A stretch of DNA of 64,000 bases from Escherichia coli (GTDB lineage Bacteria > Pseudomonadota > Gammaproteobacteria > Enterobacterales > Enterobacteriaceae), in assembly GCF_003334335.1 (NCBI RefSeq), contig NZ_QOWQ01000007.1, one strand, 5' to 3'. Made by a program: the position numbers and the translations under genes. Positions 1 through 56,789 of the stretch are shown here, one piece after another. Below the pieces are notes generated by a model. That model saw only the letters and a list, made by a program, of their open reading frames with translations. It made no database searches and was not told the DNA's origin. Within the stretch, counting starts at the first letter, position 1. Every line of letters starts with the position of its first letter.

Positions 1-572
1 TCGGCCTGCTGGCAGAAGCGTTCCTCGAAAAAAATCCCGGCGCGAAGATCATCCACGATCCACGTCTCTCCTGGAATACCGTTGATGTGGTGACTGCCGC
101 TGGCGGCACGCCGGTGATGTCGAAAACCGGACACGCCTTTATTAAAGAACGTATGCGCAAGGAAGACGCCATCTACGGTGGCGAAATGAGCGCCCACCAT
201 TACTTCCGTGATTTCGCTTACTGCGACAGCGGCATGATCCCGTGGCTGCTGGTCGCCGAACTGGTGTGCCTGAAAGATAAAACGCTGGGCGAACTGGTAC
301 GCGACCGGATGGCGGCGTTTCCGGCAAGCGGTGAGATCAACAGCAAACTGGCGCAACCCGTTGAGGCGATTAACCGCGTGGAACAGCATTTTAGCCGTGA
401 GGCGCTGGCGGTGGATCGCACCGATGGCATCAGCATGACCTTTGCCGACTGGCGCTTTAACCTGCGCACCTCCAATACCGAACCGGTGGTGCGCCTGAAT
501 GTGGAATCGCGCGGTGATGTGCCGCTGATGGAAGCGCGAACGCGAACTCTGCTGACGTTGCTGAACGAGTAA
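1..572 (+). CDS. cpsG: Phosphomannomutase (colanic-acid cluster), 3' portion only; 5' end lies upstream of the window
   Basis: ORF 87..572 translation matches my recollection of the CpsG/ManB C-terminus (...[26 protein letters not shown]); reading frame is open back to the window edge; followed by wcaJ as in the wca cluster. Confidence 0.85.
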
Positions 573-3610: not shown

Positions 3611-3797
3611 GCCGGATGCGGCGTAAAACGCCTTATCCATCCTACGGTTCCGTGCTCGGGACCTGTAGGCCTGATAAGACGCGTCAGCGTCGCATCAGGC
3701 ACTGAATGCCGGATGCGGCGTGAACGCCTTATCCGGCCTACGGTTCTGTGCTCGGGTCTTGTAGGCCTGATAAGACGCGTCAGCGTCGCATCAGGCA
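3611..3797. repeat. Tandem REP/BIME elements (two ~95 bp units)
   Basis: gccggatgcggcg...cttatcc...gtaggcctgataagacgcgtcagcgtcgcatcaggc occurs twice in tandem, classic REP palindromes; causes an artificial 5' extension of the wcaK ORF in the six-frame track. Confidence 0.85.
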
Positions 3798-9084: not shown

Positions 9085-9124
9085 GCAGTGCTCTGGTAGC
9101 TGTAAAGCCAGGGGCGGTAGCGTG
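9085..9124 (+). promoter_or_regulatory. JUMPstart element with ops site (RfaH-dependent antitermination signal) upstream of the O-antigen operon
   Basis: ggcggtagcgtg (ops consensus GGCGGTAGnnTG) at 9113-9124 within the galF-wzx leader. Confidence 0.65.
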
Positions 9125-9346: not shown

Positions 9347-10714
9347 ATGCTATCAAAGGACCATAATTTGTCACATATAAATGACCCTAATAAGTTCTGG
9401 CTTAAGTTAATCCCCCCTCAAATTTTATCAAAAATATCCAATTATAATGGATTATTGGCTGCTATCAATAATAGTGGATGGCTTATCTTTGATAAATTAA
9501 TTCGACTGGCTCTTGGGTTTATTGTTAGTGCATGGATTGCGCGATATCTTGGGCCGAATGATTTTGGTATACTAGCATATGTTCTTGCATATTTGGCCTT
9601 TTTTCAAACTATATCTGTTTTAGGTATGGATGGAATCATTGTTAGGGATATAGCGAGAGATAAAGATAAAGCCGGTGAAGTATTAGGAACTGCATTTATA
9701 TTAAGATTAACAGTTGGTTTTATTTGTTGGATATTTTCAATCATTGGGATGATTATATTTAATGGAATCCATGATGAGGTTGTGTATATTACGGCAATTA
9801 CAGGAGGTCTATTATTATTCCAATCCGTCGATACAGTAGATCTTTGGTTTCAGAGTCAAAGTGAAAGCCGGAGGACTGTTATTGCGAAATTGACAGCTTA
9901 CTTATTATCTAGCAGTGTAAAAATAATATTGATATTAAATGAAGCACCATTAATAGCATTCGCAACAATAATGTTATTTGAAACTGTGGTTTCAGCTGTA
10001 GCATTAGTTATTGCTTATAGAAAATATCCTTGTTATCAATCTTGGGTATTCTTAAAACAACGAGCATATAAAATTATTAATGAGTCCTGGCCCTTTATCT
10101 TAAGTGGCCTTTCAATCTCAATATATATGAGAATAGATCAAATCATGATCAAGGAGTTTATGGGGGATTCTGAACTGGGAATATATGCTGCAGTACTACC
10201 TTTTGCAACACTATGGTCGTTTATTCCAATGACACTATCAATAAGCTTGGCACCTTTTGTTGCAAAAACAAAACAAAAAGGGGAAAGAGAATATTGGACC
10301 TGTTTATATACAATCTTTAGAGTGTTTGCAATTATTGCTTGGTTTGTGGCAATACCTATATCACTAATGTCGAATCATATCGTTTCAATACTTTTAGGTG
10401 CTAAATATGAAGCTGGATCTGTGGTTTTATCTATAATGGCATTTGTAAATATTTTTATAAACATGGGCATAGCACAAAGTTTATGGATATTAAATGAAGG
10501 TAAATCTAAAGTTAGCTTGTATAAAACGATGATAGGTGCAGTTGTATGTGTTGCTGCTAACCTTATTTTGATTCCGAAATATGGGCTTATAGGGGCTTCT
10601 GTAAGCGCGTTATTGGCACAATTTACATCATGCATACTAAGCAATTTTCTCATATGCAAAAAAATATTTTATCTACAAGTTAGAAGTTTGTTTTTTATCA
10701 AGATGAAATTTTGA
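9347..10714 (+). CDS. wzx: O-antigen flippase (Wzx, MOP superfamily)
   Basis: 455 aa multi-pass hydrophobic protein; AT-rich coding sequence; first gene after JUMPstart; exact start not verified. Confidence 0.8.
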   Translation: MLSKDHNLSHINDPNKFWLKLIPPQILSKISNYNGLLAAINNSGWLIFDKLIRLALGFIVSAWIARYLGPNDFGILAYVLAYLAFFQTISVLGMDGIIVRDIARDKDKAGEVLGTAFILRLTVGFICWIFSIIGMIIFNGIHDEVVYITAITGGLLLFQSVDTVDLWFQSQSESRRTVIAKLTAYLLSSSVKIILILNEAPLIAFATIMLFETVVSAVALVIAYRKYPCYQSWVFLKQRAYKIINESWPFILSGLSISIYMRIDQIMIKEFMGDSELGIYAAVLPFATLWSFIPMTLSISLAPFVAKTKQKGEREYWTCLYTIFRVFAIIAWFVAIPISLMSNHIVSILLGAKYEAGSVVLSIMAFVNIFINMGIAQSLWILNEGKSKVSLYKTMIGAVVCVAANLILIPKYGLIGASVSALLAQFTSCILSNFLICKKIFYLQVRSLFFIKMKF

Positions 10715-10802
10715 TTAGTGAATAAGATATAGCGTTGCATATTTGTAATGAAATATAAATTAGATTAATCAGTAATATTGTTTTCAAAATAGGGATAATG
10801 CT

Positions 10803-12023
10803 TTGAATATAGTACTTTCGCTACTACTGCTTCTGATAGGGGGGATATCGATTATATGTGCAATAAATAAAAAGCGACCTATGCTTTTAATTCTTGCAGC
10901 CTTCTTTACAGTATATTTGGCGCTACGCCCCGTATTGCTTTCATTGGGCTTATATAATATTTATGCTTACCTCAACCCATCTGTTATCGATTATGACGAA
11001 AGCGCGCTTACGCATTGTATTATATTCACCCTAATATCATATGTATTGTTATTATTTACTTATCATAAAACAAAAAAAAGAATAAAGATTGATAAATCAA
11101 GCAATAATGACGATCAGAGAGAAAGTAATAGTAATTATAATTTTGTTGCATTTATAATTGCTCTATTACTAATCTTTTCAGTTATATTGATACCAATGTA
11201 TGTTTGTTTTGTTTATTTACTGCTGTTGATCTTGTATTATATTATCAAGTATAAAGGAGATGGGCGTAAGCTTAATGTTGTATTATCGGCTCTTTATTAT
11301 ATCTTATTAATTTTATTGCTTTTTTTTATTTCAGATGATCGTCGTGATTGGTTAGTGGCTATAGGTGTTCCTTTATATATATACATATTTGTATACTTAA
11401 AAAGCCTTATTAAGATTTTAATACCCTCAATAGTTTGCCTGCTACTTCTGGTATATATAAGTGTAGCATTCAGGAGCGGAGGTGATATATTTGATTATGA
11501 TGCTGTTAAAAATAGAGCTGAATCAGTAAGTGCAACTCTTACAGTACTTGAAGTAGAAACTGATTTTAGTATTGTATTTGATGATTATTTACTTTTATTT
11601 GACAAAAGATACTCAAGTATTGATTTTTTATACGGGGTGACAATTTTAAAACCTGTCATCTCGATTATCCCAAGAAGTATATTTCCCGACAAGCCAGAAA
11701 CATCTAGTCGACTTTTCCCAAAATATTTTAATAAACAGTTTTATAATGTTGGTGGTAGTGAACCTGTAACATTATTTGGGGAACTATATTGGAATTTTTC
11801 GTATTTGTCTCTCATTGTTTTTATGTTGTTGGGTAATATTATTGCTCTGATTGATAATACATATTTACATAATAGATCTAATTACTTATTCTCAGCATTG
11901 GTATTATCATTAAGCTTAACTGGTTTCCATCTTCTAAGAGGGCCGATTGATTCTTTTTGTTATCTGTATTTATGGTTGATATTGGCTTATCAATTATTGA
12001 ATGTCGTTAAAAAAATTAAATAG
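10803..12023 (+). CDS. wzy: Putative O-antigen polymerase (Wzy)
   Basis: 406 aa, extremely hydrophobic and AT-rich, many predicted TM segments; apparent TTG start at 10803 with an AGGGA Shine-Dalgarno ~6 nt upstream; position next to wzx. Confidence 0.7.
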   Translation: MNIVLSLLLLLIGGISIICAINKKRPMLLILAAFFTVYLALRPVLLSLGLYNIYAYLNPSVIDYDESALTHCIIFTLISYVLLLFTYHKTKKRIKIDKSSNNDDQRESNSNYNFVAFIIALLLIFSVILIPMYVCFVYLLLLILYYIIKYKGDGRKLNVVLSALYYILLILLLFFISDDRRDWLVAIGVPLYIYIFVYLKSLIKILIPSIVCLLLLVYISVAFRSGGDIFDYDAVKNRAESVSATLTVLEVETDFSIVFDDYLLLFDKRYSSIDFLYGVTILKPVISIIPRSIFPDKPETSSRLFPKYFNKQFYNVGGSEPVTLFGELYWNFSYLSLIVFMLLGNIIALIDNTYLHNRSNYLFSALVLSLSLTGFHLLRGPIDSFCYLYLWLILAYQLLNVVKKIK

Positions 12024-12032
12024 GATATTAAG

Positions 12033-12956
12033 ATGAGTAGCAATCTTGCACCAATATGTTTATTTGTGTATAACAGATATGAGCATACAGTACGAACTGT
12101 TGAGGCTTTGAAAAAAAACACACTTGCATCAAAGTCTGAACTTTATATATTTAGTGATGCGTCCAAAGATTCAAAATCTGTAGTTCAGGTACAAAAAGTT
12201 AGAGAGTATGTTGATACAATAAAAGGTTTTAAGAAAATAACAATAATTAAAGCACCAAAAAACATGGGGTTGGCGGAATCAATTATTAGCGGGGTGTCAT
12301 CTGTTATAAAAAAATATGGGCGTGTAATTGTATTTGAAGATGATCTAGTCTCAAGTCCACTGACTCTAGAATACCTCAATATAATGTTAGATAACTATAA
12401 GAATCAAGAAGACGTTATGTCGGTTACTAGCTACTCGTATCCTGAAAAAACATTAGAAATAGATAAATTTTACAATTTCGATAATTATTTTACGGGGAGA
12501 CCATGTTCATGGGGATGGGCAACATGGCAAGATAGGTGGGAGTCTATTCAATGGGAGGGTGATATATATAGAGATTATTTAAAAAACGAAAGCATGCAGA
12601 AGCAATTCATGAAATATTCAGGTGTCGATATTGACCGAATGCTTAAAAAACAATTGGCAGGGCATATTGATTCGTGGGCAGTAAGATTTGTCTTTAATTG
12701 TTTTTTACAGAAAAAATTAGCTTCATACCCGACTAAATCGTATATTACAAATATCGGTTCTGATGGGACAGGTACGCATCGGGGAGTTAATGAAGAATAT
12801 ATAGTGAATTACTCCTTAAATATTAATCTGCCAACAAATTTGCTAAATGATCTATATGTAGATAAGGATATTTGGAAGCAGTTTAATTTATTTGTTAGGA
12901 AAAAATATTTTTTTCGGAGGGCTTTACTGTTTATAAGAAGGAAATTTTATGCTTAA
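12033..12956 (+). CDS. Putative glycosyltransferase, family not recognised
   Basis: 307 aa ORF in the O-antigen cluster; no GT11 fucosyltransferase motif recognised; function inferred from context only. Confidence 0.6.
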   Translation: MSSNLAPICLFVYNRYEHTVRTVEALKKNTLASKSELYIFSDASKDSKSVVQVQKVREYVDTIKGFKKITIIKAPKNMGLAESIISGVSSVIKKYGRVIVFEDDLVSSPLTLEYLNIMLDNYKNQEDVMSVTSYSYPEKTLEIDKFYNFDNYFTGRPCSWGWATWQDRWESIQWEGDIYRDYLKNESMQKQFMKYSGVDIDRMLKKQLAGHIDSWAVRFVFNCFLQKKLASYPTKSYITNIGSDGTGTHRGVNEEYIVNYSLNINLPTNLLNDLYVDKDIWKQFNLFVRKKYFFRRALLFIRRKFYA

Positions 12957-14061
12957 AAAACTATTAAAGAAGTTTTTCATTCGTTATGCGTATAAATCAT
13001 TTAACAAAAGCGGTTCGAAAAAGGCATTATTATCATTTATCGTCCACCCCTATTTTTTCAAAACATTTAAGCATCCGAATATAATTGAGTTAGAATGTAT
13101 AGTGTCTATTTTAGAAAAGATGGGTTACTGTATTACGGTTGTAGATTATCGAAGAAAAAAAATTCATAAAAAATACGATTTAGTGTTGGGGTTTGGGGAT
13201 TGCTTTGAATATGCTATAAATCATAACTATGGCACTAAGTTTATACTTTATTCAACAGGTTTTCCTGCTTTTATTCAAAACCAGAATGCTATCGAAGCAT
13301 TTTTCCGTTTTAAACAAATGTACACTGAAAAACAGAACATTGTATCTGATAAGTATATACGTTTAACTGAAAATGTTTGGCCCAGACAATTAATAGAAAG
13401 TGATGCTATTATCACTATAGGTAATGATTATGTTAAATCATTATATGAACGATTTCACGATAAGATATATTGTATTCCATCTACAGCTTTTAAAATAATA
13501 ACTCAGCAATCTACAACAATAAATTCTATAAAAAAAAATTCATTTTTGTGGTTTGGAGGGAAAGGGTGTATTCACAAGGGACTGGATTTATGTATAGCAG
13601 CAATAGCTGGCACAGAGTATAAGTTATACATAGCAGGTCCTATAGACGATGAAATTTGTATTTTTAATGACATATTGAGTACTTATCCAGATAATTTTGA
13701 GTATCTTGGTTTTCTTTCTGTTAATACTGAAGAATTTTGCGAGGTAGTTGAGCATATCCCATTTTGTATATTGCCGTCATGTAGTGAAGCAATGGCTACC
13801 TCCATTGTGACGCTGGCTAGTAATTTCGGAACGATTCCGTTAATTACAAAGGAATGTGGTTTTGACTTTGATAATGAAATCATAGAAATAAATTCATTAA
13901 CTATTCAATCTGTTAAACAAGCATTATTTAAAGCGTCATTGTTGACTGAAGATGAAATTTATATTAGAAAATCTTCTATCAAAAGAAAATACAGTTCTTA
14001 TCATAGCAATGAATCGTTTTACAGTAAATTTGAATATTCTCTAAAAGAAATACTTAGATAG
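12949..14061 (+). CDS. Putative glycosyltransferase (GT4-like C-terminal half)
   Basis: 370 aa; C-terminal region carries a GT-B-like ...LPSCSEAMATSIVTLASNFGTIPLI... motif; overlaps the upstream ORF by 8 nt. Confidence 0.6.
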   Translation: MLKKLLKKFFIRYAYKSFNKSGSKKALLSFIVHPYFFKTFKHPNIIELECIVSILEKMGYCITVVDYRRKKIHKKYDLVLGFGDCFEYAINHNYGTKFILYSTGFPAFIQNQNAIEAFFRFKQMYTEKQNIVSDKYIRLTENVWPRQLIESDAIITIGNDYVKSLYERFHDKIYCIPSTAFKIITQQSTTINSIKKNSFLWFGGKGCIHKGLDLCIAAIAGTEYKLYIAGPIDDEICIFNDILSTYPDNFEYLGFLSVNTEEFCEVVEHIPFCILPSCSEAMATSIVTLASNFGTIPLITKECGFDFDNEIIEINSLTIQSVKQALFKASLLTEDEIYIRKSSIKRKYSSYHSNESFYSKFEYSLKEILR

Positions 14062-14071
14062 GTAATTAACA

Positions 14072-15082
14072 GTGATCATCTATGATGGAATTATAGAAAA
14101 ATTGCAGTCTGGCGGTGGTGTTACCGTAGTTTTTAATGAAATTGTCTCGAGGTTAACAGAATATAAATATATTAGCTATGACACTTGTTCTAAAATATCG
14201 ATAGCTAGAAACAATATGATAAAACCATCAAGATTTTTGGAACGATATAGAGATTGTGTTATTCCTGATTACAATCCTCAAGATAAGGCTATATTTCATT
14301 CGACTTATTATAGATTACCTCATCATTTGAACATACCAGTCATAACAACAGTTCATGATTTTACCTATGAAAAGTTCGTTGATGGTCCTGCGAAGAAGAT
14401 TCATTCATGGCAAAAAAATAGAGCAATACGTCGGAGTGATATAATCATCTGTGTATCACAAAATACCGCAAATGACTTGATGAGATATTGTCCGGTAAAT
14501 TCCAGTCGTATTCGTGTAATATATAATGGAGTTTCAGATGAATATTATCCTTTACCCGAAATTAATAATGTTGATTCTCAAAAAGTATTGTTTGTAGGGG
14601 CAAGAGGTGGTTATAAAAACTTTGAATTAGCAATAGATGCAGTTTCCTCTGTAGCCGGATTAGAGTTACATATAGTGGGGGGGGGGGATTTAACAACACA
14701 AGAAAAAATAAAATTAGAAAGTAAATTGTCGGGTAGATATTTTTGGTTGGGTAAGCTTACAAATCAAGAGCTAAATATTGCATATAATAGTAGCTATGCG
14801 TTGCTTTATCCATCAAGTTATGAAGGTTTTGGAATCCCAATTATCGAGGCAATGCGTGCTGGTTGTCCAGTTATTGCTGCGAATTCGTCTTCAATACCTG
14901 AAGTTGCTGGCGATGCGGCAATATTAGTGGATGATTTGAATATATCTACTTTTCGCGAAGCCCTATTAAGCATACCAGCATGTCGCAATGAATTGATCTC
15001 CGCAGGTTTCGCACAGTCTAGAAAATTTTCTTGGGAGCGCTGTTTCCAGGAAACGTTATTAGCTTATAATGAATTGCTTTAA
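14072..15082 (+). CDS. Glycosyltransferase family 4
   Basis: 336 aa; [33 protein letters not shown] is a classic GT4 signature; apparent GTG start; contains a G11 homopolymer at 14677-14687. Confidence 0.8.
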
Positions 15083-15099: not shown

Positions 15100-16224
15100 A
15101 TGAGCAAAAAAATCGCATTCCTCACAGGTGTTACTGGTCAAGATGGCTCTTATCTGGCCGAATTTCTTTTGGCTAAAGGTTATGAAGTTCACGGGATTAA
15201 ACGTCGCGCATCTTCTTTTAATACAGAGCGAGTTGATCATATTTATCAAGCACCTCATCATAAAGACCCTAATTTCTTTCTTCATTATGGTGACTTAACA
15301 GATTCATCAAACCTGATACGTCTAATCAAAGAAATCCAACCAAACGAAGTTTATAACCTTGGCGCTCAATCTCATGTAGCGGTTTCATTCGAATCACCTG
15401 AATATACTGCTGACGTTGATGCGATGGGGACTTTACGTCTGTTGGAGGCGATTCGTATTTGTGGGCTAGAGAAAAAAACACGTTTCTATCAGGCATCTAC
15501 TTCTGAACTCTTCGGCTTAGTTCAGGAAATCCCGCAGCGAGAAACAACACCATTCTACCCTCGTTCGCCTTATGCTGTTGCGAAGATGTATGCATACTGG
15601 ATTACTGTAAACTATCGTGAATCCTATGGAATGTACGCCTGTAACGGTATTCTCTTCAACCATGAATCCCCGCGTCGTGGTGAAACATTCGTAACACGTA
15701 AAATCACTCGTGCTATTGCAAATATTTCGCAGGGAATCGAAAAATGTCTCTATCTTGGCAATATGGACTCACTGCGTGACTGGGGACATGCAAAAGATTA
15801 CGTGCGTATGCAGTGGATGATGTTGCAGCAAGATCACCCAGAAGATTTTGTTATTGCAACAGGCAAACAAATTTCCGTACGTGAATTTGTTCGTATGTCC
15901 GCTAAAGAAGTAGGTCTGGAGTTAGAATTCTCCGGACAAGGTGTTGATGAAATAGCAACTGTTGTCAATAAAACATCTGACTGTGCTATTGGTGTAAGTA
16001 TTGGGGATGTGATCGTTCGTGTTGATCCGCGTTATTTTCGTCCTGCAGAAGTTGAAACTCTTCTTGGTGATCCAGCAAAAGCGAAAAAAGTATTGGGTTG
16101 GGAACCAGAGATTACAGTTGAAGAGATGTGTGCAGAAATGGTTGCCAGTGATCTGGCGAAAGCAAAACAGCATGCACTTCTGAAAAGCCATGGTTACGAT
16201 GTTGCAGTTTCTCTGGAGCGGTAA
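15100..16224 (+). CDS. gmd: GDP-mannose 4,6-dehydratase
   Basis: [36 protein letters not shown]... strongly Gmd-like; ATG at 15100. Confidence 0.93.
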
Positions 16225-16227
16225 GGT

Positions 16228-17193
16228 ATGACAAAAAAACGTATCTACGTTGCTGGTCACCGAGGTATGGTTGGCTCTGCTATTTGCCGTCAATTATCAC
16301 TGCGTGATGATATCGAATTAGTGGTCAAAACACACAAAGAACTCGATCTAACCGTACAGAAGGATGTTGATGCATTTTTTGAGCAAGAGAAAATTGATCA
16401 GGTTTATCTTGCTGCGGCTAAAGTTGGTGGCATTTATGCCAACAATACATTTCCGGCAGAATTCATCTATCAGAATCTCATGATTGAGAGTAATATTATT
16501 CATTCAGCTCACAAGGCCGGAATTCAAAAATTACTTTTTTTAGGCTCAAGCTGTATTTATCCTAAATTCGCAGAGCAGCCGATGAACGAGTCTGCGCTTT
16601 TAACGGGCATACTTGAGCCAACTAATGAGCCATACGCAATTGCTAAAATTGCGGGCATAAAATTATGTGAATCTTATAACCGTCAATATGGCCGTGATTA
16701 TCGCAGTGTAATGCCTACTAATCTTTATGGCATAAATGATAATTTCCACCCTGAAAACTCTCATGTTATTCCGGCACTCATGCGTAGATTCCATGAGGCA
16801 AAAGAGAGTGGAGCACCAGAAGTTATTGTCTGGGGAACCGGAACACCGATGCGTGAGTTTTTATATGTTGATGATATGGCTGCCGCATCTGTTCATGTAA
16901 TGGAACTTGACGAAGCAATTTATCAACAAAATACACAGCCTATGTTATCTCATATTAATGTTGGTACGGGTGTAGATTGTTCTATACGTGAAATGGCTGA
17001 AACAATGGCCTCTGTGGTGGGTTATCAAGGTAAAATTGTTTTTGATGTTACTAAACCTGATGGCACTCCGCGTAAACTTATGGACGTTACCCGGCTCAAA
17101 AACTTGGGCTGGCAATATCGCTATAATTTACATGAAGGCTTATCATTAACATATAAATGGTTTATTGAGAATATTAATTCTTTTCGGGGATAG
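16228..17193 (+). CDS. fcl: GDP-L-fucose synthase (GDP-4-keto-6-deoxymannose 3,5-epimerase/4-reductase)
   Basis: 321 aa; [19 protein letters not shown]... N-terminus typical of Fcl/WcaG; follows gmd. Confidence 0.92.
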
Positions 17194-17195
17194 TT

Positions 17196-17657
17196 ATGAA
17201 CAAGAGATTGGAACGTGAGCTATTTAAAACAATAGTTGAGCATACTCCTCTAATCTCGATTGATCTCATAATTAGAAACGATAAAGGAGAGGCGCTGCTG
17301 GGGCAGCGCCTGAATCGCCCAGCACAAAATTATTGGTTTGTGCCAGGAGGGCGAATTTATAAGGATGAGTCATTCGAGGTTGCATTTAAACGGATAACAT
17401 TTGAAGAGTTGGGCGTTAAAATTAGTCTTAATGACGCCTTATTTCTTGGGGTGTATGAACATTTTTACAATGATAATTTTTCTGAAGCAGAATTTTCTAC
17501 ACACTATGTAGTGCATGGATATGAAATCCAACTTAATCCTCAGCAACTTCACCTACCAACGGTCCAGCATAATTCCTACAAGTGGTTTGATGTAGTAACG
17601 TTGCTTAATAGCACTATAGTTCATCAATATACCAAAAATTATTTTATACCAAGGTAA
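17196..17657 (+). CDS. gmm: GDP-mannose mannosyl hydrolase (Nudix)
   Basis: 153 aa Nudix-like protein between fcl and manC, the canonical gmm position. Confidence 0.85.
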   Translation: MNKRLERELFKTIVEHTPLISIDLIIRNDKGEALLGQRLNRPAQNYWFVPGGRIYKDESFEVAFKRITFEELGVKISLNDALFLGVYEHFYNDNFSEAEFSTHYVVHGYEIQLNPQQLHLPTVQHNSYKWFDVVTLLNSTIVHQYTKNYFIPR

Positions 17658-17662
17658 TACAT

Positions 17663-19069
17663 ATGCTACTTCCCGTTGTCATGGCCGGTGGTTCAGGTAC
17701 CAGATTATGGCCTCTTTCACGTACACTTTATCCGAAACAATTTCTGTCTTTAAATAGTCGTTTAACCATGTTGCAAGAGACATTGCGGCGGCTTGACAAG
17801 ATCGAACATAAACCCGCTTTGGTCATTTGTAACGAATCACATCGCTTTATCGTTGCTGAACAATTGCGTAAAGAGGGTTTAAAGCATAGTGGTATTTTGC
17901 TTGAGCCTGTGGGTCGTAATACTGCGCCTGCTGTAGCACTCGCAGCACTTCAGGCTATGGTAACTGGAGATGATCCTATTCTGTTGGTTCTTGCTGCTGA
18001 TCATGAAATCCAGAATGAGGATAATTTCATTGATGCAGTTCTTGCAGCCAAGAATTTTGCAGAGCAGGGTAAGCTTGTTACGTTTGGTATTGTTCCAACA
18101 TCCCCAGAGACTGGCTATGGTTACATTAAGTTAGGTGAATATCTGGATGGAAAAGGTTACAAAGTTGCGGCTTTTGTTGAAAAACCAGAGCTTCACGTAG
18201 CTCAGCGGTATATATCAGATGGCGGTTATCTTTGGAATAGTGGGATGTTTATGTTCAGAGCATCTGTATTTATCGATGAACTGAAAAAATTCCGACCAGA
18301 TATTTTAGCCAGTTGCCAAAGCTCTCTGTCCTCTTCGACACAAGATTTAGATTTTATCCGTCTGGATAACTCTTCATTTTCTTGCTGTCCTGAAGAGTCG
18401 ATTGATTATGCCGTTATGGAAAAAACAGCCGAAGCTGTCGTCGTTCCATTAAATGCGCAATGGAGTGATGTTGGGTCATGGTCTGCATTGTGGGAAATAA
18501 GTTCAAAAGACCAAAGCGGCAATGCCATTCGTGGTGATGTATTGGTTGAAGATGCTACAGATAGTTATCTTTATTCGCAGCATAGACTTATTGGTGCCGT
18601 GGGCGTAAAGGATTTGGTTGTTGTTGAAACGAAAGATGCCGTATTAGTTGCTCATAAAGACAAAGTTCAGCAAGTTAAAAATATTGTCGCTCAACTTAAA
18701 AAAAATAATCGAACAGAATATTTACAGCATCGGGAAATTTTTCGGCCTTGGGGCAGTCATGATACTATAGCTGAAGGGCCGCGCTTTCAAGTGAAACATG
18801 TGATTGTATTACCTGGTCACATTACCGCTAAGCAGATTCATTACCATCGTACTGAGCATTGGATTGTTGTCTCGGGGACAGCTAAAGTTCATCTTGAAGA
18901 TAAGACTTATCTTGTTTCTGAAAATGAATCAACATACATACCTGTTGGTGTTCCACATGCCATTGAAAATCCTGGCAAGATCCCACTCGAAATAATTGAG
19001 GTTAGATCAGGAGTCTACCTTGAAGAGGATGATGTTATAAGAGTTCCTTCTTCTGGAGTAGGATACTAA
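17663..19069 (+). CDS. manC: Mannose-1-phosphate guanylyltransferase
   Basis: 468 aa; N-terminal nucleotidyltransferase motif (VVMAGGSGTRLWPLSR) and C-terminal cupin region. Confidence 0.93.
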   Translation: MLLPVVMAGGSGTRLWPLSRTLYPKQFLSLNSRLTMLQETLRRLDKIEHKPALVICNESHRFIVAEQLRKEGLKHSGILLEPVGRNTAPAVALAALQAMVTGDDPILLVLAADHEIQNEDNFIDAVLAAKNFAEQGKLVTFGIVPTSPETGYGYIKLGEYLDGKGYKVAAFVEKPELHVAQRYISDGGYLWNSGMFMFRASVFIDELKKFRPDILASCQSSLSSSTQDLDFIRLDNSSFSCCPEESIDYAVMEKTAEAVVVPLNAQWSDVGSWSALWEISSKDQSGNAIRGDVLVEDATDSYLYSQHRLIGAVGVKDLVVVETKDAVLVAHKDKVQQVKNIVAQLKKNNRTEYLQHREIFRPWGSHDTIAEGPRFQVKHVIVLPGHITAKQIHYHRTEHWIVVSGTAKVHLEDKTYLVSENESTYIPVGVPHAIENPGKIPLEIIEVRSGVYLEEDDVIRVPSSGVGY

Positions 19070-19815
19070 TGCGAATTTCTATTATCACAGCTACTTATAA
19101 TAGTGAAAAAACTCTCCTTGATACATTACTTTCTCTAGAAAAGCAAACGCATCCAGATATTGAATATATAGTTGTAGATGGAGCATCGAAAGATAATACA
19201 ATTAAGCTGATTAAGAGTAATTGTACAAAAGTTTCAAAAATCATTTGCGAACCCGATAAGGGCATTTATGATGCTCTGAATAAAGGTATTCAAGCAGCTT
19301 CGGGTGATGTTATTGGTTTTTTACATTCTGATGACTTATTTGCTTATGATGATGCTATTGCAGATATAGCAAAAACATTTGAAAGTACAGGATGTGATGC
19401 TATTTATGGCGATTTGGAGTACGTTGCCCAAAATGATACGACTAAACGTATTAGATTATGGAAAAGTGGTTCATTTAGTCGTTTCAAGATGAAAGTGGGT
19501 TGGATGCCGCCACACCCATCATTTTATATGAAACGCGAATGTTATAGTCAGTTTGGTAGTTTTTCTTTAGATTATCGAATATCTGCTGATTATGACTCAT
19601 TATTACGATATATTTTAAAACAACGTATTTCGATAGCATATTTACCAAAAGTCTTAGTGAAGATGCGTGTTGGTGGAATTAGCAATCGTTCAGTATCTTC
19701 AATGGCCAAGAAGTCAATGGAAGACATTCGTATTATGAAACAGAATGGTATTATCTGGCCACTTGCTTTAGCGTATAAAAATATATCCAAACTTCCTCAA
19801 TTTATTAAAAAGTAA
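19069..19815 (+). CDS. Glycosyltransferase family 2
   Basis: 248 aa; MRISIITATYNSEKTLLDTLLSLEKQTHPDIEYIVVDGASKDNT is a typical GT2 N-terminus with DxD-type region. Confidence 0.8.
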   Translation: MRISIITATYNSEKTLLDTLLSLEKQTHPDIEYIVVDGASKDNTIKLIKSNCTKVSKIICEPDKGIYDALNKGIQAASGDVIGFLHSDDLFAYDDAIADIAKTFESTGCDAIYGDLEYVAQNDTTKRIRLWKSGSFSRFKMKVGWMPPHPSFYMKRECYSQFGSFSLDYRISADYDSLLRYILKQRISIAYLPKVLVKMRVGGISNRSVSSMAKKSMEDIRIMKQNGIIWPLALAYKNISKLPQFIKK

Positions 19816-19820: not shown

Positions 19821-21245
19821 ATGTTAAATGTTAAAAAAATCATTAACGATAGTAATATTGCGTTCGGTACTAGTGGTGCTCGCGGTTTAGTGATCGATTT
19901 TTCCCATGATGTTTGTGCTGCGTTCACTCATGCGTTTCTTTCTGTTATTGATGACAAATACAATTTTAGTAAAGTTGCCTTAGCCATTGATAACCGCCCA
20001 AGTAGTTACGAAATTGCTCAGGCATGCGCGTATGCTATAAAACAACATGGATTCGAGGTTGAATATCATGGTGTAATTCCGACTCCTGCATTAGCTCATT
20101 ATTCGATGCAGAAAAACATTCCCTGCATAATGGTCACAGGGAGTCATATCCCTTTTGATCGTAATGGCTTAAAATTCTACAGACCTGATGGTGAAATCAC
20201 TAAAGAGGATGAGCTCGCAATTATAAATAGTGAGTATACATTTTCGCCTGTAGGTGAATTACCTCATCTTGAAACAAGCACTCAAGGTGCAGACTACTAC
20301 CTCGAACGTTATGTTTCTCTTTTTAATCCCGAGATTTTAAAGGGGAAAAGAATAGGGGTATATGAACATTCTAGTGCGGGACGCGATTTATATGCTCCTC
20401 TTTTTAATCAAATGGGTGCAGAGGTCATTTCCCTCGGTAGGAGTGATGAGTTCGTTCCGATTGATACGGAAGCAGTAAGCGATGAAGATCGTATACTTGC
20501 AAGAGAGTGGTCTAAAAAATATAATCTTGATGCTATTTTCTCAACAGATGGCGATGGTGATCGTCCTTTAGTTGCCGATGAAAATGGTGAATGGTTAAGA
20601 GGCGATATTCTGGGACTACTTACTGCTATTGAACTTAATATCAAGGCGTTGGCTATTCCAGTGAGTTGTAATACAGCAATTGAAGAGTCTAATAAATTTG
20701 CAAGTATACAACGAACGAAAATAGGTTCTCCTTATGTAATTGCAGCATTTGCAGATCTTGCTAAGCAATTTGATTCAGTCGCTGGTTTTGAAGCTAATGG
20801 TGGTTTTCTCCTTGCCTCCGATTTACAAATTAATGGCAAGGAATTAAAATCGTTACCTACACGAGATGCTGTGTTACCAGCATTAATGCTCTTAATAGCT
20901 TCTCGCAATAGTACTATTTCTCAACTGATTAATAATCTTCCTCAGCGATTCACTTGGTCAGATAGAGTTAAAAACCTCCCTTCAGATTCAAGTCAACAAA
21001 TTATAAAAAATGCCATATCGTCACCCAATAATTTCTTTAATAGTTTAGGTTATGAATCATTATCCTGTTCCGCTATTGATGAAACGGATGGTGCAAGATT
21101 TACTTTAAATAATGGTGATATTATACATCTCCGTCCTTCCGGTAATGCTCCAGAACTCCGTTGTTATGCTGAGGCCAGTGATGAAAATCAGGCTAAGCAA
21201 TATGTTACGAATGTGCTGGGAAATATTACCTCTTTGATTTCTTGA
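19821..21245 (+). CDS. manB: Phosphomannomutase / alpha-D-phosphohexomutase of the O-antigen cluster
   Basis: 474 aa; phosphohexomutase active-site-like TGSHIP motif; sequence clearly differs from the cpsG paralogue at the window start. Confidence 0.75.
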   Translation: MLNVKKIINDSNIAFGTSGARGLVIDFSHDVCAAFTHAFLSVIDDKYNFSKVALAIDNRPSSYEIAQACAYAIKQHGFEVEYHGVIPTPALAHYSMQKNIPCIMVTGSHIPFDRNGLKFYRPDGEITKEDELAIINSEYTFSPVGELPHLETSTQGADYYLERYVSLFNPEILKGKRIGVYEHSSAGRDLYAPLFNQMGAEVISLGRSDEFVPIDTEAVSDEDRILAREWSKKYNLDAIFSTDGDGDRPLVADENGEWLRGDILGLLTAIELNIKALAIPVSCNTAIEESNKFASIQRTKIGSPYVIAAFADLAKQFDSVAGFEANGGFLLASDLQINGKELKSLPTRDAVLPALMLLIASRNSTISQLINNLPQRFTWSDRVKNLPSDSSQQIIKNAISSPNNFFNSLGYESLSCSAIDETDGARFTLNNGDIIHLRPSGNAPELRCYAEASDENQAKQYVTNVLGNITSLIS

Positions 21246-21441: not shown

Positions 21442-22848
21442 ATGTCAAAGCAACAGATCGGCGTCGTCGGTATGGCAGTGATGGGGCGCAACCTTGCGCT
21501 CAACATCGAAAGCCGTGGTTATACCGTCTCTATTTTCAACCGTTCCCGTGAAAAGACGGAAGAAGTGATTGCCGAAAATCCAGGCAAGAAACTGGTTCCT
21601 TACTATACGGTGAAAGAGTTTGTTGAATCTCTGGAAACGCCTCGTCGCATCCTGTTAATGGTGAAAGCAGGTGCAGGCACGGATGCTGCTATTGATTCCC
21701 TCAAACCATATCTCGATAAAGGCGACATCATCATTGATGGTGGTAACACCTTCTTCCAGGACACCATCCGTCGTAATCGTGAGCTTTCTGCAGAAGGCTT
21801 TAACTTCATCGGTACCGGTGTCTCCGGCGGTGAAGAAGGTGCGCTGAAAGGTCCTTCCATTATGCCTGGTGGGCAGAAAGAAGCCTATGAGCTGGTTGCT
21901 CCGATCCTGACCAAAATCGCCGCAGTGGCTGAAGACGGTGAGCCATGCGTTACCTATATTGGTGCTGATGGTGCAGGTCACTATGTGAAGATGGTTCACA
22001 ACGGTATTGAATACGGTGATATGCAGCTGATTGCTGAAGCCTATTCTCTGCTTAAAGGTGGCCTGAACCTCACCAACGAAGAACTGGCGCAGACGTTTAC
22101 CGAGTGGAATAACGGTGAACTAAGCAGCTACCTGATCGACATCACCAAAGATATCTTCACCAAAAAAGATGAAGACGGTAACTACCTGGTTGATGTGATT
22201 CTGGATGAAGCAGCAAACAAAGGTACTGGCAAATGGACCAGCCAGAGTGCGCTGGATCTCGGTGAACCGCTGTCGCTTATTACCGAGTCTGTGTTTGCAC
22301 GTTATATCTCTTCTCTGAAAGAGCAGCGTGTTGCCGCATCTAAAGTTCTCTCTGGCCCGCAAGCACAGCCAGCAGGCGACAAGGCTGAGTTCATCGAAAA
22401 AGTTCGCCGTGCGCTGTATCTGGGCAAAATCGTTTCTTACGCTCAGGGCTTCTCTCAGCTACGCGCCGCGTCTGAAGAGTACAACTGGGATCTGAACTAC
22501 GGTGAAATCGCGAAGATTTTCCGTGCTGGCTGCATCATCCGTGCACAGTTCCTGCAGAAAATCACCGATGCATATGCCGAAAATCCGCAGATCGCTAACC
22601 TGCTGCTGGCTCCGTACTTCAAGGAAATTGCCGATGACTACCAGCAGGCGCTGCGCGATGTCGTCGCTTATGCAGTACAGAACGGTATCCCGGTTCCGAC
22701 CTTCGCCGCTGCGGTTGCCTATTACGATAGCTACCGTGCCGCTGTTCTGCCTGCGAACCTGATCCAGGCACAGCGTGACTATTTCGGTGCGCATACTTAT
22801 AAGCGCATTGATAAAGAAGGTGTGTTCCATACTGAATGGCTGGATTAA
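21442..22848 (+). CDS. gnd: 6-phosphogluconate dehydrogenase, decarboxylating
   Basis: 468 aa; [27 protein letters not shown]...; canonical right flank of the O-antigen cluster. Confidence 0.97.
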
Positions 22849-35387: not shown

Positions 35388-35653
35388 AGAAAAATTATTA
35401 TGACAAGCCTCTCATTCTCTTGTCATTTCCCCCCCATTTAGGCACAATGCGCCGCTGTCAAAAAATGACTAAAAACCGACGTTTCATCAGCGTCGGTTAT
35501 TTTTTGCTTCAAACCAATCATTCATACCAAGAGGCCGGGCTTCGTACCGGATAGATATTTACTAAAAATCGACAGTTGTTGTCGCTGAGGAATCCAAAAA
35601 AATGGGGCAATTTTTTGCTTACGCGACGGTTATCACCGTAAAGGAGAATGACC

Positions 35654-43785: not shown

Positions 43786-44061
43786 TTAGCGACAGACTTC
43801 TTCTATATGCAGCAAGGCAAAAAGTTCTGCAACTCTATTGTTATTAACCGCACTGGTTACTAACACGTTGTGCGCTCCAGCTTCCCGTAACCAACATTTC
43901 ACCAAAGATATTTGTTCCATGTTGGCTAAATCTGCTTTGGTTACTACTCCAATGACCGGGCGATTCATTGACGAGGTAAAGCCTGGCGAAAAAGGTGACC
44001 ACGGTGCGTCCGCATTAAGCACCAGCGCGATAATGTCTGCTTCGCAGGCACTGACCAACAA
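43786..44061 (-). pseudogene. yoeF: EutP/PduV-family GTPase, C-terminal fragment (yoeF-like remnant); N-terminal P-loop part missing
   Basis: 91 aa ORF with ...[12 protein letters not shown]... typical of EutP/PduV C-terminal halves; no P-loop-encoding sequence found upstream in any frame. Confidence 0.55.
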
Positions 44062-44420
44062 TGCACTGTAGAGGCTGCGGTTTTATCGGTGAGGAGTGGC
44101 AGCAAGATTTCCAGCCTCTTGATGGTGGGCCTGTGCAATCGTTATCAGATGCGTATAGCGATTATTCAGTGCTGCTATTGATAGCAGCTGAAAGCGAGAT
44201 ATCCGTACCAGAATGGCTCGCTCATTCTGAGGGAACGACGGTAATTTTGATTGCAGAACACAATGCCCGTTTGCTGACTGGTCCGGCTGGTGGGGCTGTA
44301 GCATTAATCCATTATCTGAATGAAATCTGTCATTCCAGAGAAACCGCTAGCAATGACGCATTTTGTCGGACGTTAACACGAGGAAGTCTGGCTATTCCGC
44401 AATGCCATCTTCTTTCGTAA
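44061..44420 (+). CDS. Hypothetical 119 aa ORF at the CP4-44 empty site; may be non-coding
   Basis: Only the open reading frame itself; no recognisable domain or convincing RBS. Confidence 0.2.
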
Positions 44421-48079: not shown

Positions 48080-49057
48080 ATGGAAAAGAGAATGACGAAA
48101 CAGAAAAAAAACAGCCGCTGGCAGGGTTACGATCCTCGCTACATATACTCGCTCGTGGTCAGACGTTATTTTGCGGATATGAAAACCAAGATTGAGATTG
48201 CAGAGGAGCTTGGCGTTTCCCGCTTTAAAGTTGCCAGATTGATCGATGAGGCGATCGAACAGGATTACGTGAGGTTTATCTTCCCTAAGCAGCAAGCGAT
48301 GGATGAAGAAATCGCCAGTAATTTACGGAAAAAATTTCATCTGGAAGATGCAATTGTTCTTTCAGTTGCTGAATCCTGGACGACGCAAGAAGAACTCAAT
48401 CACAAATTGGGTGAAGTCACCGCTGAATATCTTATGCAATCTCTTCATGAAGGTATGAAAGTGGGGATCGCCTGGGGGCGTGTATTATCAAGCACGGTCA
48501 GTAAGTTGAGCAAGTTGCCTCCTTTAGACGTTGTGCAGTTATCTGGCGTACATCCGGGGATTGAGTTCAGTCAAGGGCCAATAGATCTTATTCATAAGAT
48601 CGCTGCCATTTCGCAGGGAAAAGCGCACCCAATGTACGTGCCGATGTGGGTCGATGACGAAGAGCTTGCTGCCAGACTGGCAGGTGATCCTGCGGTATTA
48701 GATACACAGCAATATTACTCACAGTTGGATGTGGTTATCACCGGGATAGGTGACTGGAAATCAGGTTCTTCAAGCTTGTGTAAAATATTTCCGGATACCT
48801 GGTGCGAAGCGTTGTTTCAACAAGATATCGCTGCGGATGTGTGTATCTCGTTGGTCAACAGGGAAGGGAAGATTCTTCATAGTCCTATTGAACGTCTGGG
48901 ATTTGGCATTTCGACGGATCAACTACAAAAAGCCAAAAAAGTGATTGGTGTCGCTGGAGGAGAAGAAAAATATGAAGGCATCCTTGCTTCGCTGAAATCC
49001 GGACTTTTGAATGTCTTAATTACTGATTTTGATACGGCCATTAAACTTCTGGATTAA
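48080..49057 (+). CDS. SorC/DeoR-type transcriptional regulator (N-terminal HTH, C-terminal sugar-phosphate-binding domain)
   Basis: 325 aa; HTH region IEIAEELGVSRFKVARLIDEA followed by a SorC-like effector domain; start could also be the ATG at 48092. Confidence 0.8.
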   Translation: MEKRMTKQKKNSRWQGYDPRYIYSLVVRRYFADMKTKIEIAEELGVSRFKVARLIDEAIEQDYVRFIFPKQQAMDEEIASNLRKKFHLEDAIVLSVAESWTTQEELNHKLGEVTAEYLMQSLHEGMKVGIAWGRVLSSTVSKLSKLPPLDVVQLSGVHPGIEFSQGPIDLIHKIAAISQGKAHPMYVPMWVDDEELAARLAGDPAVLDTQQYYSQLDVVITGIGDWKSGSSSLCKIFPDTWCEALFQQDIAADVCISLVNREGKILHSPIERLGFGISTDQLQKAKKVIGVAGGEEKYEGILASLKSGLLNVLITDFDTAIKLLD

Positions 49058-49075
49058 TAGCCATATCAGTGAAGA

Positions 49076-49106
49076 AAGGGCAGTACCGCTGATTCTGCCC
49101 TTTTAA
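49076..49106. terminator. Bidirectional terminator between the convergent regulator gene and the PTS operon
   Basis: gggcag-taccgctgatt-ctgccc hairpin followed by tttt. Confidence 0.6.
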
Positions 49107-49108
49107 TT

Positions 49109-49567
49109 TCAGGATGCTTCGAGCGTATCCTCTACATATTTAGCCACGCGCGTTGCAGGTAAATTGCGGCAAGTCTCAACAAAGGCGTTATCCTGAAACA
49201 GTGTGAATAAACGACGCAATATCGACATATGTTGATCACTGGTGGCAAATGCCAGGTTAAACATAATGCTACAATCAACTGTTAAATCAGCATCTTCCAT
49301 TTGCCCGAAAGTGACATCATTGGCGAAACGAACAATACTGATACTGTTGACATTTACCAGCGTGTAATCGGCATGGGGAATGGCGATACCCTGACCGTTT
49401 GCCATCATTAGTCCTGTCGGATAGCTTTTTTCACGTTTCAGACAGGCGTCAATGTATTCTGCAGTGATATAGCCTTTTTCCAATAATTGCGTACCAGCAA
49501 AGGTGATCGCCGTTTGATAGTCACTGATGCTGTTATCAACATCATTCACCAGAATTTCAAATTTCAT
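49109..49567 (-). CDS. PTS enzyme IIA component (galactitol-family PTS)
   Basis: 152 aa; phosphorylatable His context GQGIAIPHADYTL typical of PTS EIIA type 2. Confidence 0.85.
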   Translation of the reverse strand: MKFEILVNDVDNSISDYQTAITFAGTQLLEKGYITAEYIDACLKREKSYPTGLMMANGQGIAIPHADYTLVNVNSISIVRFANDVTFGQMEDADLTVDCSIMFNLAFATSDQHMSILRRLFTLFQDNAFVETCRNLPATRVAKYVEDTLEAS

Positions 49568-49577
49568 TGCACACCTG

Positions 49578-49862
49578 TTATTTCAACATCTCTTCTTTAA
49601 CTGCAGCGAAAATCTCATCTTCGCCCAGACCAGTCAGTAATCCAGCGCCAACGATGACACGAGTAGTAATGGCCGGGTTATCGAGTTTGGTCGATGAAAC
49701 CACCAGGTCATAGCTGTTGAAGGTATCGCTGGTGCATGCCATTAACGAAGATTTATCGACTTGCGCTTCAATTTTCTCTTCTTTCAGGAAGTCCTGCAGT
49801 ACAGAGACCATGATGGAAGATGAGGCAATTCCGTTTCCGCAAACTACTAAGATTTTTTTCAT
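49578..49862 (-). CDS. PTS enzyme IIB component (GatB-like)
   Basis: 94 aa; MKKILVVCGNGIASSSIM with the active-site Cys near the N-terminus. Confidence 0.85.
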   Translation of the reverse strand: MKKILVVCGNGIASSSIMVSVLQDFLKEEKIEAQVDKSSLMACTSDTFNSYDLVVSSTKLDNPAITTRVIVGAGLLTGLGEDEIFAAVKEEMLK

Positions 49863-49885
49863 TTGATTATTCCTCTGTAAAAGAT

Positions 49886-51256
49886 TTAAAGCGCTTTTTC
49901 CAAATCCGTTTCAATCTGGCGACGTGATTTTTGTTTAATTAAGTATCCAATAGATAACAAAAGGATACCTGCCATCAAATAGCCAATGATTCCAACATGG
50001 CTCAGGGCGGCAAACAGACCAGTAAATGGATTCGCTGACGGGTTAAGTGAAGAGTACATTACGCTGGCATCCGGGTTTGTACCAAATTTCTGGAAGACTT
50101 CGTTGGTAGCCGGTGCCATCCACGACGCAATATACAGACCACCACCGAACAATATGATCGAGGTCACCCAGGTGCGAATAATGTTGCCATTAAAAACAGG
50201 TACCATGCAGGCAATGAAAAACACAAACTGAGAGAGGTCACCCAGTGGCATAACGCGGTTGCCGGGCAAGATCACGGCGAGGATCACAATCACCGGGATC
50301 AGCAATAATGCAGGGGCGATAACTGATGGATGGCCCACAATCAGAGCAGTGTCCATACCAACAGTGATTTGACGATCCGGGAACCGTTTGACCAGTTTTT
50401 TGCGTGCTACGTTGGAAAGCGGAACAAGTCCTTCCATCATGATAGAGGTCATACGTGGTAACAGAAGCATGACCGCAGCCAGATACATCCCTAACTGTAG
50501 GCTGGCGATTATGGTGTGGTATGGGGATTTCCAGCCATAACCACAAAAGCCCAATAAAATACCAATAATAAAACCAACCATAGTTGGATCGCCGAGAATG
50601 CCAAACCGTTTCTGAATAGTTTCGGCGGTCACATTCAGATTACGGAAGCCTGGGATGCGATCATAAATCCAGTTGAATGGATAAGCGAAAAGTAAGTAGG
50701 TATTGGCAACCGGGTGAGAGATCGCAACACCTTTTGGCAGGTTAAAGAATTTTTCGTTATTTTTAGCACCAAGATCGGCAGCGATCAGCGCCCAGACATG
50801 GAATAGCGCGGCGGTCAATGCGCCATACAGGAAGCTACCAGAATAGACGCCAACAATTGCCCCCATTGACGCATTTTGATGAAGATTGAAGACATCAACG
50901 TTAACACAGTCAGTCAGGCGGGCGACCAGCATTGCAATATTTACCGCAACACAGAGGGGAATAATGATAGCGCCCATGCTGGAGCCAAATCCCATAACCG
51001 CAGTCGCTGCGCCACCAACATCGATGGCACTGAGCGAGGAACCTGTTGCTTCTGCTAATCCGGTGACTGCCGGTTGCATTTTTTCCAGCATCAGTTTGAT
51101 GGTCATGGTTAACGCAATGAAACCAATGCCGACTTTGATGGCAGACGAGATACATTCTGAAAGAGGACGGCCAAGTATCTTCATCAGTACCAGAAAGATG
51201 ACCGGGATAAATATAAAATTTCCCAGATCGTTTATAAATTGCGTGATCAGTTCCAT
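49886..51256 (-). CDS. PTS enzyme IIC permease (GatC/SgcC family)
   Basis: 456 aa; shares blocks with GatC as I recall it (IGIGF, VNVDVFN, IQKRFG, MEGLVP, LIVGHPSV, PGNRVMPLGDL). Confidence 0.85.
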   Translation of the reverse strand: MELITQFINDLGNFIFIPVIFLVLMKILGRPLSECISSAIKVGIGFIALTMTIKLMLEKMQPAVTGLAEATGSSLSAIDVGGAATAVMGFGSSMGAIIIPLCVAVNIAMLVARLTDCVNVDVFNLHQNASMGAIVGVYSGSFLYGALTAALFHVWALIAADLGAKNNEKFFNLPKGVAISHPVANTYLLFAYPFNWIYDRIPGFRNLNVTAETIQKRFGILGDPTMVGFIIGILLGFCGYGWKSPYHTIIASLQLGMYLAAVMLLLPRMTSIMMEGLVPLSNVARKKLVKRFPDRQITVGMDTALIVGHPSVIAPALLLIPVIVILAVILPGNRVMPLGDLSQFVFFIACMVPVFNGNIIRTWVTSIILFGGGLYIASWMAPATNEVFQKFGTNPDASVMYSSLNPSANPFTGLFAALSHVGIIGYLMAGILLLSIGYLIKQKSRRQIETDLEKAL

Positions 51257-51259
51257 ACA

Positions 51260-51796
51260 TTAACCCTCAGATTTTTCATCATCTGGTCGGAAACCCATAT
51301 TCCAGCGTACATCAGCGGGCTTAACCAGCAATGCATTATCGTTACGTTCAGCTTCTAGCAAGTTCTTTTTAGAATTTTCTCTGGCGGTGGTGAAGTCGAA
51401 TGGGTTATCCAACCATGCATCGACAATCATTTTGCTGTATTCGAGATCGTTGACCCGGCAACCCAGTCCAATAACTTGTGCGTTATTGCTGAGTCGCGCC
51501 CGCTTTGCGGAGTAGGGGTTAGTAACCGCAACGGCTCTTATGCCCCAGTGTTTGTTGATCTGACAAGTAAAGCCAATGCCAGTCCCACAAATGTAAATTC
51601 CCAGACGGCACTCATCGCGTTGAATAATGCCTGCCATTTCGTCGGCCAGACGCGCGAAGTTATTGACACCTTGTTCCTTACATGTGACGGGATCGTACAC
51701 GATCTCCATGTTTTTCTCTTCTATGAGGTATTTTTTTATCTCCTCTTTACGTGCAAAACCTACATCATCGCTTGCGATAGCAATCTTTGTTTTCAT
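51260..51796 (-). CDS. RpiB/LacA/LacB-family sugar-phosphate isomerase (ribose-5-P isomerase B / allose-6-P isomerase-like) with a C-terminal extension
   Basis: 178 aa; IYICGTGIGFTCQINK...IRAVAVTNPYSAKRARLSNNAQVIGLGCRV...KMIVDAWL aligns with E. coli RpiB blocks from memory; ~30 extra C-terminal residues. Confidence 0.8.
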   Translation of the reverse strand: MKTKIAIASDDVGFARKEEIKKYLIEEKNMEIVYDPVTCKEQGVNNFARLADEMAGIIQRDECRLGIYICGTGIGFTCQINKHWGIRAVAVTNPYSAKRARLSNNAQVIGLGCRVNDLEYSKMIVDAWLDNPFDFTTARENSKKNLLEAERNDNALLVKPADVRWNMGFRPDDEKSEG

Positions 51797-52144
51797 TTCA
51801 TTTTGCCTGTCGTTAAGTAACTAAAGCCAAGTATGCTGTTGGTAAATATTGGTTGTCAATTGAGATCTGAATCACAAAATTTATAACTAATTGATTTTAA
51901 TGGTATTAAAAACCAATAAAAACAAATAAAAAATAAATTAAGCCAATTGAGACAAATTGGGATTGTACAGTGGCGTTGTAATGAATAATAAAAACTCATT
52001 TATTATCAATCGGATATATGGTTTTTGAACTGTTGTCTTTATTGGGTTTATTTGTACTTTCCACTGTTAGTGTTTGTTTTTGTTTGCATCATCTGTGCTA
52101 TGCTTGGCGTTTTCTAAGATGGGTAATAGATTTCAGGAGGAAGG

Positions 52145-52900: not shown

Positions 52901-53065
52901 AACTCACTACGACACGCCTTCTCCCTTCGAATCAGCTTTGCCAAATGTAATCATTTCCCAATTATCAAGTGAGCATCCATGGCGATGCTTGCTTAGCGCC
53001 CTCTATTGAATACATCCTCTGCCTATTGCCAGTTTCAGTTACTTTTTTGCGAAGAAATCACGATT

Positions 53066-53204: not shown

Positions 53205-53227
53205 TTTTTGGGTGAGGGGGAAAGGAT

Positions 53228-53671: not shown

Positions 53672-53689
53672 TAAAAACTGGAGTTTATT

Positions 53690-53983: not shown

Positions 53984-54003
53984 ACCTGACAGGAATAATA
54001 AAA

Positions 54004-55257: not shown

Positions 55258-55279
55258 TTTAATAATCTGGAGTTTTAAC

Positions 55280-56774: not shown

Positions 56775-56789
56775 AAAGGGAGAGAAAAA

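Follow-up and report, generated by a model that had tools for sequence, protein, structure and literature searches.

The window analysed here, a stretch of 64,000 nucleotides from Escherichia coli, contains the 3' end of the colanic-acid gene cpsG and, in the O-antigen cluster, a second gene, manB, that codes for another member of the phosphohexomutase superfamily. The presence of both genes raised the question of whether manB is a copy of cpsG, to which branch of the superfamily its product belongs, and on which sugar phosphate the product acts. At a probability of roughly 0.88, the product of manB is a functional phosphomannomutase belonging to the ManB branch, and the gene ends a horizontally acquired, low-GC cassette, where we infer the enzymatic activity, the working of the operon and the direction in which the cassette was transferred. 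This type of ManB is already known, by a RefSeq annotation, a solved homologue, a subfamily recognised in CDD and its presence in several named serogroups.

The cpsG gene is represented by its last 189 codons and the stop codon (3..572, plus strand), with a translation ending in LLTLLNE. These first 572 bases of the window are identical to cpsG of E. coli LR-29-1 (NZ_AP027515.1), a strain with 99.96-99.99% identity to the window, from which full-length CpsG (456 amino acids) and the complete colanic-acid genes were taken. The cpsG stop codon is followed by wcaJ, wzxC, wcaK, wcaL, wcaM and galF, and then by a JUMPstart element (9086..9124, plus strand), which heads the O-antigen operon and scores 60 bits with Rfam RF01707, for which the gathering score is 35. 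Beyond JUMPstart, the order is the O-antigen cluster, gnd, ugd, wzzB and the his operon. On the same strand, manB starts 19.2 kb from the cpsG stop codon, so that the layout described in the earlier note, with a second mutase 19 kb downstream of the cpsG 3' end, was found.

Several other features were identified in the window. An naRNA4 element (79.7 bits) is located on the minus strand at 3668-3738, near the wzxC/wcaK junction, and the small RNA STnc240 (68.2 bits) on the plus strand at 35433-35507, downstream of yeeY; both Rfam scores are above the gathering score. Three tRNA-Asn genes are present at 57409-57484, 59817-59892 and 61641-61716, and between ldtA and the first of them lies an accessory island for sugar utilisation (about 48100-57400), which contains two regulators, rpe, hxlB and two PTS systems. 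A fragment of an EutP/PduV pseudogene is present at about 43786-44082.

Within the O-antigen cluster, a serogroup-specific part was delimited at 9347..15082 (plus strand) by the open reading frames, the RefSeq annotation of the near-identical strain and a GC content of 0.29-0.34. It consists of wzx (9347-10714), a wzy candidate (10803-12023) and three glycosyltransferase genes (12033-12956, 12949-14061 and 14072-15082), all on the plus strand. The wzx and wzy products matched none of the serogroup-specific NCBIfam models, and RefSeq names them only "flippase" and "hypothetical protein". No part of the O84 cluster is similar to the wzy candidate, and the serogroup-specific half of the cluster in the window may represent an unnamed O type. 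This half seems to be rare, as the wzy candidate was identified in only three of 5426 complete E. coli genomes. Near the 3' end of the wzy candidate, an extra A at 12009, compared to LR-29-1, makes the reading frame end at 12023 instead of at the equivalent of 12036; this may reflect true variation or an error in the sequencing of a homopolymer.

The second half of the cluster is a GDP-fucose module on the plus strand. RefSeq annotates gmd (15100..16224), fcl for GDP-L-fucose synthase (16228..17193) and gmm for GDP-mannose mannosyl hydrolase (17196..17657), with 80%, 73% and 50% amino acid identity to the colanic-acid Gmd, Fcl and Gmm, respectively. The following manC gene (17663..19069) codes for a bifunctional mannose-1-phosphate guanylyltransferase/mannose-6-phosphate isomerase, which reaches 737.6 bits with TIGR01479 at a cut-off of 373 and is 59% identical to CpsB. 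Between manC and manB, a WcaE-like GT2 glycosyltransferase of 248 amino acids is encoded (19069..19815; 29% identity to WcaE), for which the best NCBIfam match is wcaE with 71.8 bits, below the cut-off. The housekeeping gene gnd (21442..22848, plus strand; RefSeq annotation) ends the block common to serogroups.

The manB gene (19821..21245, plus strand) starts with an ATG located 5 nt past the GT2 stop codon and preceded by a weak Shine-Dalgarno sequence, and codes for a protein of 474 amino acids of the 4HJH type, named phosphomannomutase in RefSeq (WP_087895191.1). A search of the region from 8.8 to 23 kb for promoters and terminators gave promoter-like sites at a frequency not above that of shuffled sequence, and reported no terminator-like site in the interval from manB to gnd. 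Pfam identified the four phosphohexomutase domains I-IV in order in the product (PF02878, PF02879, PF02880 and PF00408; E 7e-23 to 1e-5), and therefore the reading frame is not a chance one. The earlier note had described an AT-rich gene for a 474-residue mutase with a TGSHIP motif, and this description holds, since the reading frame is intact, has a GC content of 38% and codes for all four domains and every catalytic loop.

The phosphoserine loop of ManB is TGSHIP (residues 106-111, with Ser108; VTGSHIP spans 105-111), the Mg2+ loop is DGDGDR (243-248, with D243, D245 and D247), the sugar-binding loop is GFEANGG (322-328, with E324 and N326), and the phosphate-binding loop of domain IV is RPSGNAPELR (438-447, with R438, S440, N442 and R447). 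S108, H109, D243, D245, D247, R248, E324, N326, R438, S440, N442 and R447 do not vary among 27 diverse members of the family, whose identity to ManB is only 39-78%. The loops align with those of CpsG, GlmM, Pgm and an archaeal PGM/PMM, and their signature is distinct. The bifunctional PMM/PGM enzymes of the CpsG/AlgC/Xanthomonas PGM type (NCBIfam NF007088; CDD cd03089) have the superfamily, the four-domain layout, the reaction chemistry and the step in the GDP-mannose pathway in common with ManB; in contrast, their loops read TASHNP, GGEMSAH and RTSNTEP, compared to TGSHIP, GFEANGG and RPSGNAPE in ManB.

For ManB, a role in mannose metabolism is supported by context and by genetics, with the activity itself being predicted. 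In Brucella, manBcore mutants are rough, and the structure with the PDB code 4HJH, a relative of ManB, served the authors of that work as structural model for manBcore (PMC7762576). In the window, manC is located 752 bp upstream of manB in the same operon. The genomic context of homologues was analysed for the best 80 of at least 588 matches, with one genome per species, homologues 46-69% identical to ManB and a bias towards Gammaproteobacteria. Among these 80 loci, manC was found within 8 kb in 52 (65%) and adjacent on the same strand at less than 300 bp in 37 (46%); where both flanks were complete, 36 of 48 loci contained manC. Gmd was identified in 29 and Fcl in 26 of the same best 80 loci, and a GalF-like gene, similar to UDP-glucose pyrophosphorylase, in only two. 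No manC was present within 8 kb in 28 of them, and some homologues are solitary genes. Of six homologue contexts viewed individually, two had manC nearby and three had none, and in one the contig was too short. In the clusters of the E. coli O17/O44/O73/O77/O106 family and of O141, manC is followed by a manB of the same class in the absence of gmd and fcl, so that GDP-mannose is the only product of the pathway there.

On the basis of the established chemistry of the family, phospho-Ser108 would hand its phosphate to mannose-6-phosphate, and the mannose-1,6-bisphosphate formed would reorient within the active site and give its 6-phosphate back to the serine, while D243, D245 and D247 would hold Mg2+. 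The resulting mannose-1-phosphate would be converted to GDP-mannose by the neighbouring ManC, and Gmd and Fcl from the same operon would then produce GDP-L-fucose for the O-unit. Synthesis of the O-antigen would thereby be independent of the separately regulated colanic-acid cpsG.

In the literature searched, no enzyme assay was found for any member of the ManB clade. The altered loops (SHIP, EANGG and SGNAPE) leave some room for a tentative and rather unlikely proposal, namely that the clade differs from the bifunctional CpsG/AlgC enzymes in its specificity or its need for an activator, for example, by being strictly specific for mannose. If this were true, a distinct specificity of ManB could explain why mobile GDP-mannose cassettes retain manB in hosts that already contain cpsG.

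ManB probably has some additional activity on glucose phosphates, because the homologue 4HJH was crystallised with glucose-6-phosphate, as given in a figure legend of PMC7762576. A stronger version of this idea would be that ManB is mainly a phosphoglucomutase, or a glucose-1,6-bisphosphate synthase that aids other mutases, and that the mannose label is historical. The ligand in 4HJH is consistent with this version, as are the solitary homologues without manC and the recent demonstration that the phosphohexomutase subfamily cd05800 makes glucose-1,6-bisphosphate (PMC9426568). However, the CDD table in the same publication lists ManB (cd03088, phosphomannomutase) apart from cd05800 and also from the PMM/PGM subfamily cd03089, and it is presumably cd03088 to which the ManB described here is assigned. 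The linkage to manC in the best 80 of at least 588 matches, compared to the near absence of UDP-glucose pyrophosphorylase-like genes from the same loci, also argues against a mainly glucose-directed enzyme, as does the fact that E. coli already contains pgm. We consider a main function in glucose phosphate conversion improbable, and a phosphomannomutase with a side activity the preferred reading.

The nearest solved structure to ManB by far is 4HJH (E 4e-109), with 43.6% identity over 459 amino acids. It was deposited as a phosphomannomutase and is a paralogue of ManBcore BMEII0899 from Brucella melitensis (PMC7762576), where the structure is cited as unpublished; no publication describing it was found in the literature searched, only PMC7762576 citing the structure. 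The 4HJH protein carries the same signatures as ManB (FGTSGxRG, TGSHIP, DGDxDRP, GFEANGG and SGNAPELRCY), although it is of alphaproteobacterial origin and comes from another genomic setting. With a solved homologue at 44% identity, the fold of ManB is taken as fixed. The clade is large, with 590 clusters at the 50% identity level obtained at E 1e-30 or better among 1.84 billion representatives, and phosphomannomutase is the name of every named homologue with 62-78% identity, these being from Enterobacter, Lelliottia, Photobacterium, Vibrio and Aeromonas. A PMM/PGM from a Laminaria metagenome (PMC9537760) was considered as a relevant relative and set aside, being of the AlgC type (TGSHNP).

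A phylogenetic placement, which the earlier note had proposed as a check, was obtained by a distance-based neighbour-joining tree with bootstrapping and a small set of outgroups, E. coli CpsG, GlmM and Pgm and the archaeal 9DU5, where 4HJH and 9DU5 were included only with their aligned regions. ManB, the ManB of the O17 group, 4HJH and 25 representatives formed one clade in 100 of 100 bootstraps, with GlmM, CpsG, Pgm and 9DU5 outside. As judged from its sequence, ManB belongs to a separate branch of the superfamily, distinct from CpsG/AlgC, GlmM and Pgm.

The position of GlmM in this comparison deserves attention, since a GlmM-like phosphoglucosamine mutase could supply glucosamine-1-phosphate for an amino sugar of the O-unit. 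GlmM is the nearest E. coli paralogue of ManB, with 25.3% identity and 83 bits compared to 42 bits for CpsG, and it is the sister group of the ManB clade in 62 of 100 bootstraps, which is weak support. The top NCBIfam matches of ManB are also GlmM models, Arch_GlmM (TIGR03990) with 171.9 bits and glmM (TIGR01455) with 101 bits. These scores, however, fall well short of the curated cut-offs (439 and 447.55, respectively), and no NCBIfam equivalog model attains its cut-off with ManB; the PMM/PGM model NF007088 gives 66.8 bits at a cut-off of 618. GlmM is excluded from the ManB clade in all 100 bootstraps and has different loops (SHNP and GAENSGH compared to SHIP and GFEANGG in ManB), and the neighbours of manB are manC, gmd and fcl, with no amino-sugar genes. 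A phosphoglucosamine mutase is thus very improbable. The earlier note had left the specificity of the mutase open among mannose, glucose and glucosamine phosphates, and this was overstated in view of the wide failure of the GlmM models, the 4HJH clade and the linkage to manC; the part of it that stands is a possible side activity on glucose phosphates in vitro.

In the direct comparison with the resident gene, ManB and full-length CpsG were 20.5% identical over 429 amino acids (BLASTP, E 2e-8). On the nucleotide level, blastn with a word size of 7 gave no match between manB and cpsG, and the longest exact run common to both genes is 9 nt. The base composition also differs, with a GC content of 0.382 and a GC3 of 0.251 for manB compared to 0.551 and 0.637 for cpsG. 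The nearest solved relatives of CpsG are the PMM/PGM structures from Xanthomonas and of AlgC from Pseudomonas, with 569 and 193 bits. The pairwise alignment with full-length CpsG had likewise been proposed in the earlier note, which described manB as divergent and not as a near-copy of cpsG; the low amino acid identity, the lack of any blastn match and the separate clade bear this out, and high nucleotide identity is absent. That manB instead arose long ago by duplication of the resident cpsG, with strong divergence and a drift in base composition since then, as the common superfamily and the location 19 kb apart on the same strand could suggest, has a negligible likelihood and is refuted by the clade test in the neighbour-joining tree, since ManB is less similar to CpsG than CpsG is to GlmM (25.9%), 4HJH is absent from the structure matches of CpsG at E 1e-10 or better, and homologues of ManB with 60-73% identity are found in Vibrio, Photobacterium, Aeromonas and Enterobacter.

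For the ManB-branch phosphomannomutase, an origin outside the colanic-acid locus is also indicated by the module as a whole. The GC3 of the module genes is 0.25-0.34 compared to 0.62-0.69 for the colanic-acid genes, and the order gmd-fcl-gmm-manC-GT2-manB is the same in Vibrio ezurae, Grimontia hollisae, Aeromonas bestiarum and Halomonas cerina. In these four species, the GT2 homologue between manC and manB is 52-58% identical to the one in the window. Because this position in the cassette is conserved, the GT2 protein (19069-19815) is a candidate for a fucosyltransferase travelling with the GDP-fucose genes. The earlier claim that the second GDP-sugar pathway was imported with the O-antigen cluster, and not duplicated from the colanic-acid genes, agrees with the low GC3 and the conserved cassette order. 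Gmd, Fcl, ManC and Gmm each have an ordinary, diverged counterpart encoded among the colanic-acid genes (50-80% amino acid identity), and ManB stands out with 20.5%; because ManB belongs to a different clade while the others have merely diverged, the case for import is stronger than the one made before. The manB gene would thus be the last gene of a horizontally acquired low-GC cassette, with the direction of transfer likewise a matter of interpretation, and this cassette would have been reused in several kinds of E. coli O-antigen cluster, in each case at the end next to gnd.

Among 5426 complete E. coli genomes, 187 contain manB beside gnd at 90% nucleotide identity or more, in at least five types of O-antigen cluster. 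A further 146 of these genomes match manB only at 60-80% identity, which gives 333 in total. The segment 15091-22868, from the start of gmd to the end of gnd, is 96.1% identical to the O84 locus over 7780 bp, and the similarity is lost sharply upstream of gmd. The same manB adjoins gnd in O36, O141 and an unnamed cluster. In O84, O36 and O141, manB is 90.7-99.5% identical to that of the window on the nucleotide level and always located directly upstream of gnd, and the manB of the O17/O44/O73/O77/O106 family is of the same class, with 59.8% amino acid identity. In contrast, the O84, O36, O141 and O17-family clusters are unrelated to the 5' half of the cluster in the window, with its wzx, wzy and three glycosyltransferase genes. 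This suggests, from the pattern of identity along these loci, that one gnd-proximal module has been reused repeatedly.

The separate origin of manB also has consequences for recombination between the two loci. Deletions between manB and cpsG were reported for the O14 type strain (PMC7685785) and for REL606, and 23-kb manB-cpsG deletions for 8 of 12 LTEE populations (bioRxiv 10.64898/2026.06.14.732165, also for REL606). A second gene copy resembling cpsG is common in E. coli: a search with cpsG found 5707 places in 4673 genomes, two of them in O157:H7, which contains a second, cpsG-like copy where the strain of the window has the ManB-branch gene. It had been proposed that the divergence of the two mutase genes limits homologous recombination between the O-antigen and the colanic-acid locus, and for manB and cpsG this is the case. 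For gmd it is not: the O-antigen and colanic-acid copies retain 75.7-75.9% identity over about 760 nt (15108-15864), with an exact run of 44 nt, and apart from this stretch the GDP-fucose module has no appreciable similarity to the colanic-acid genes on the nucleotide level. Since these copies are still similar, the protection from recombination is not absolute.

Beyond bookkeeping, the significance is small, since both types of manB and their annotation are already present in public databases. For E. coli, the comparison means that the O-antigen clusters contain two kinds of manB that are not interchangeable, a cpsG-like one and one of the ManB branch. A cpsG-like manB can recombine with cpsG, by which the whole O-antigen region is deleted, whereas the ManB-branch gene cannot. 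This is of relevance to how stable the O-antigen locus is genetically and to typing schemes based on manB or on sequence close to gnd.
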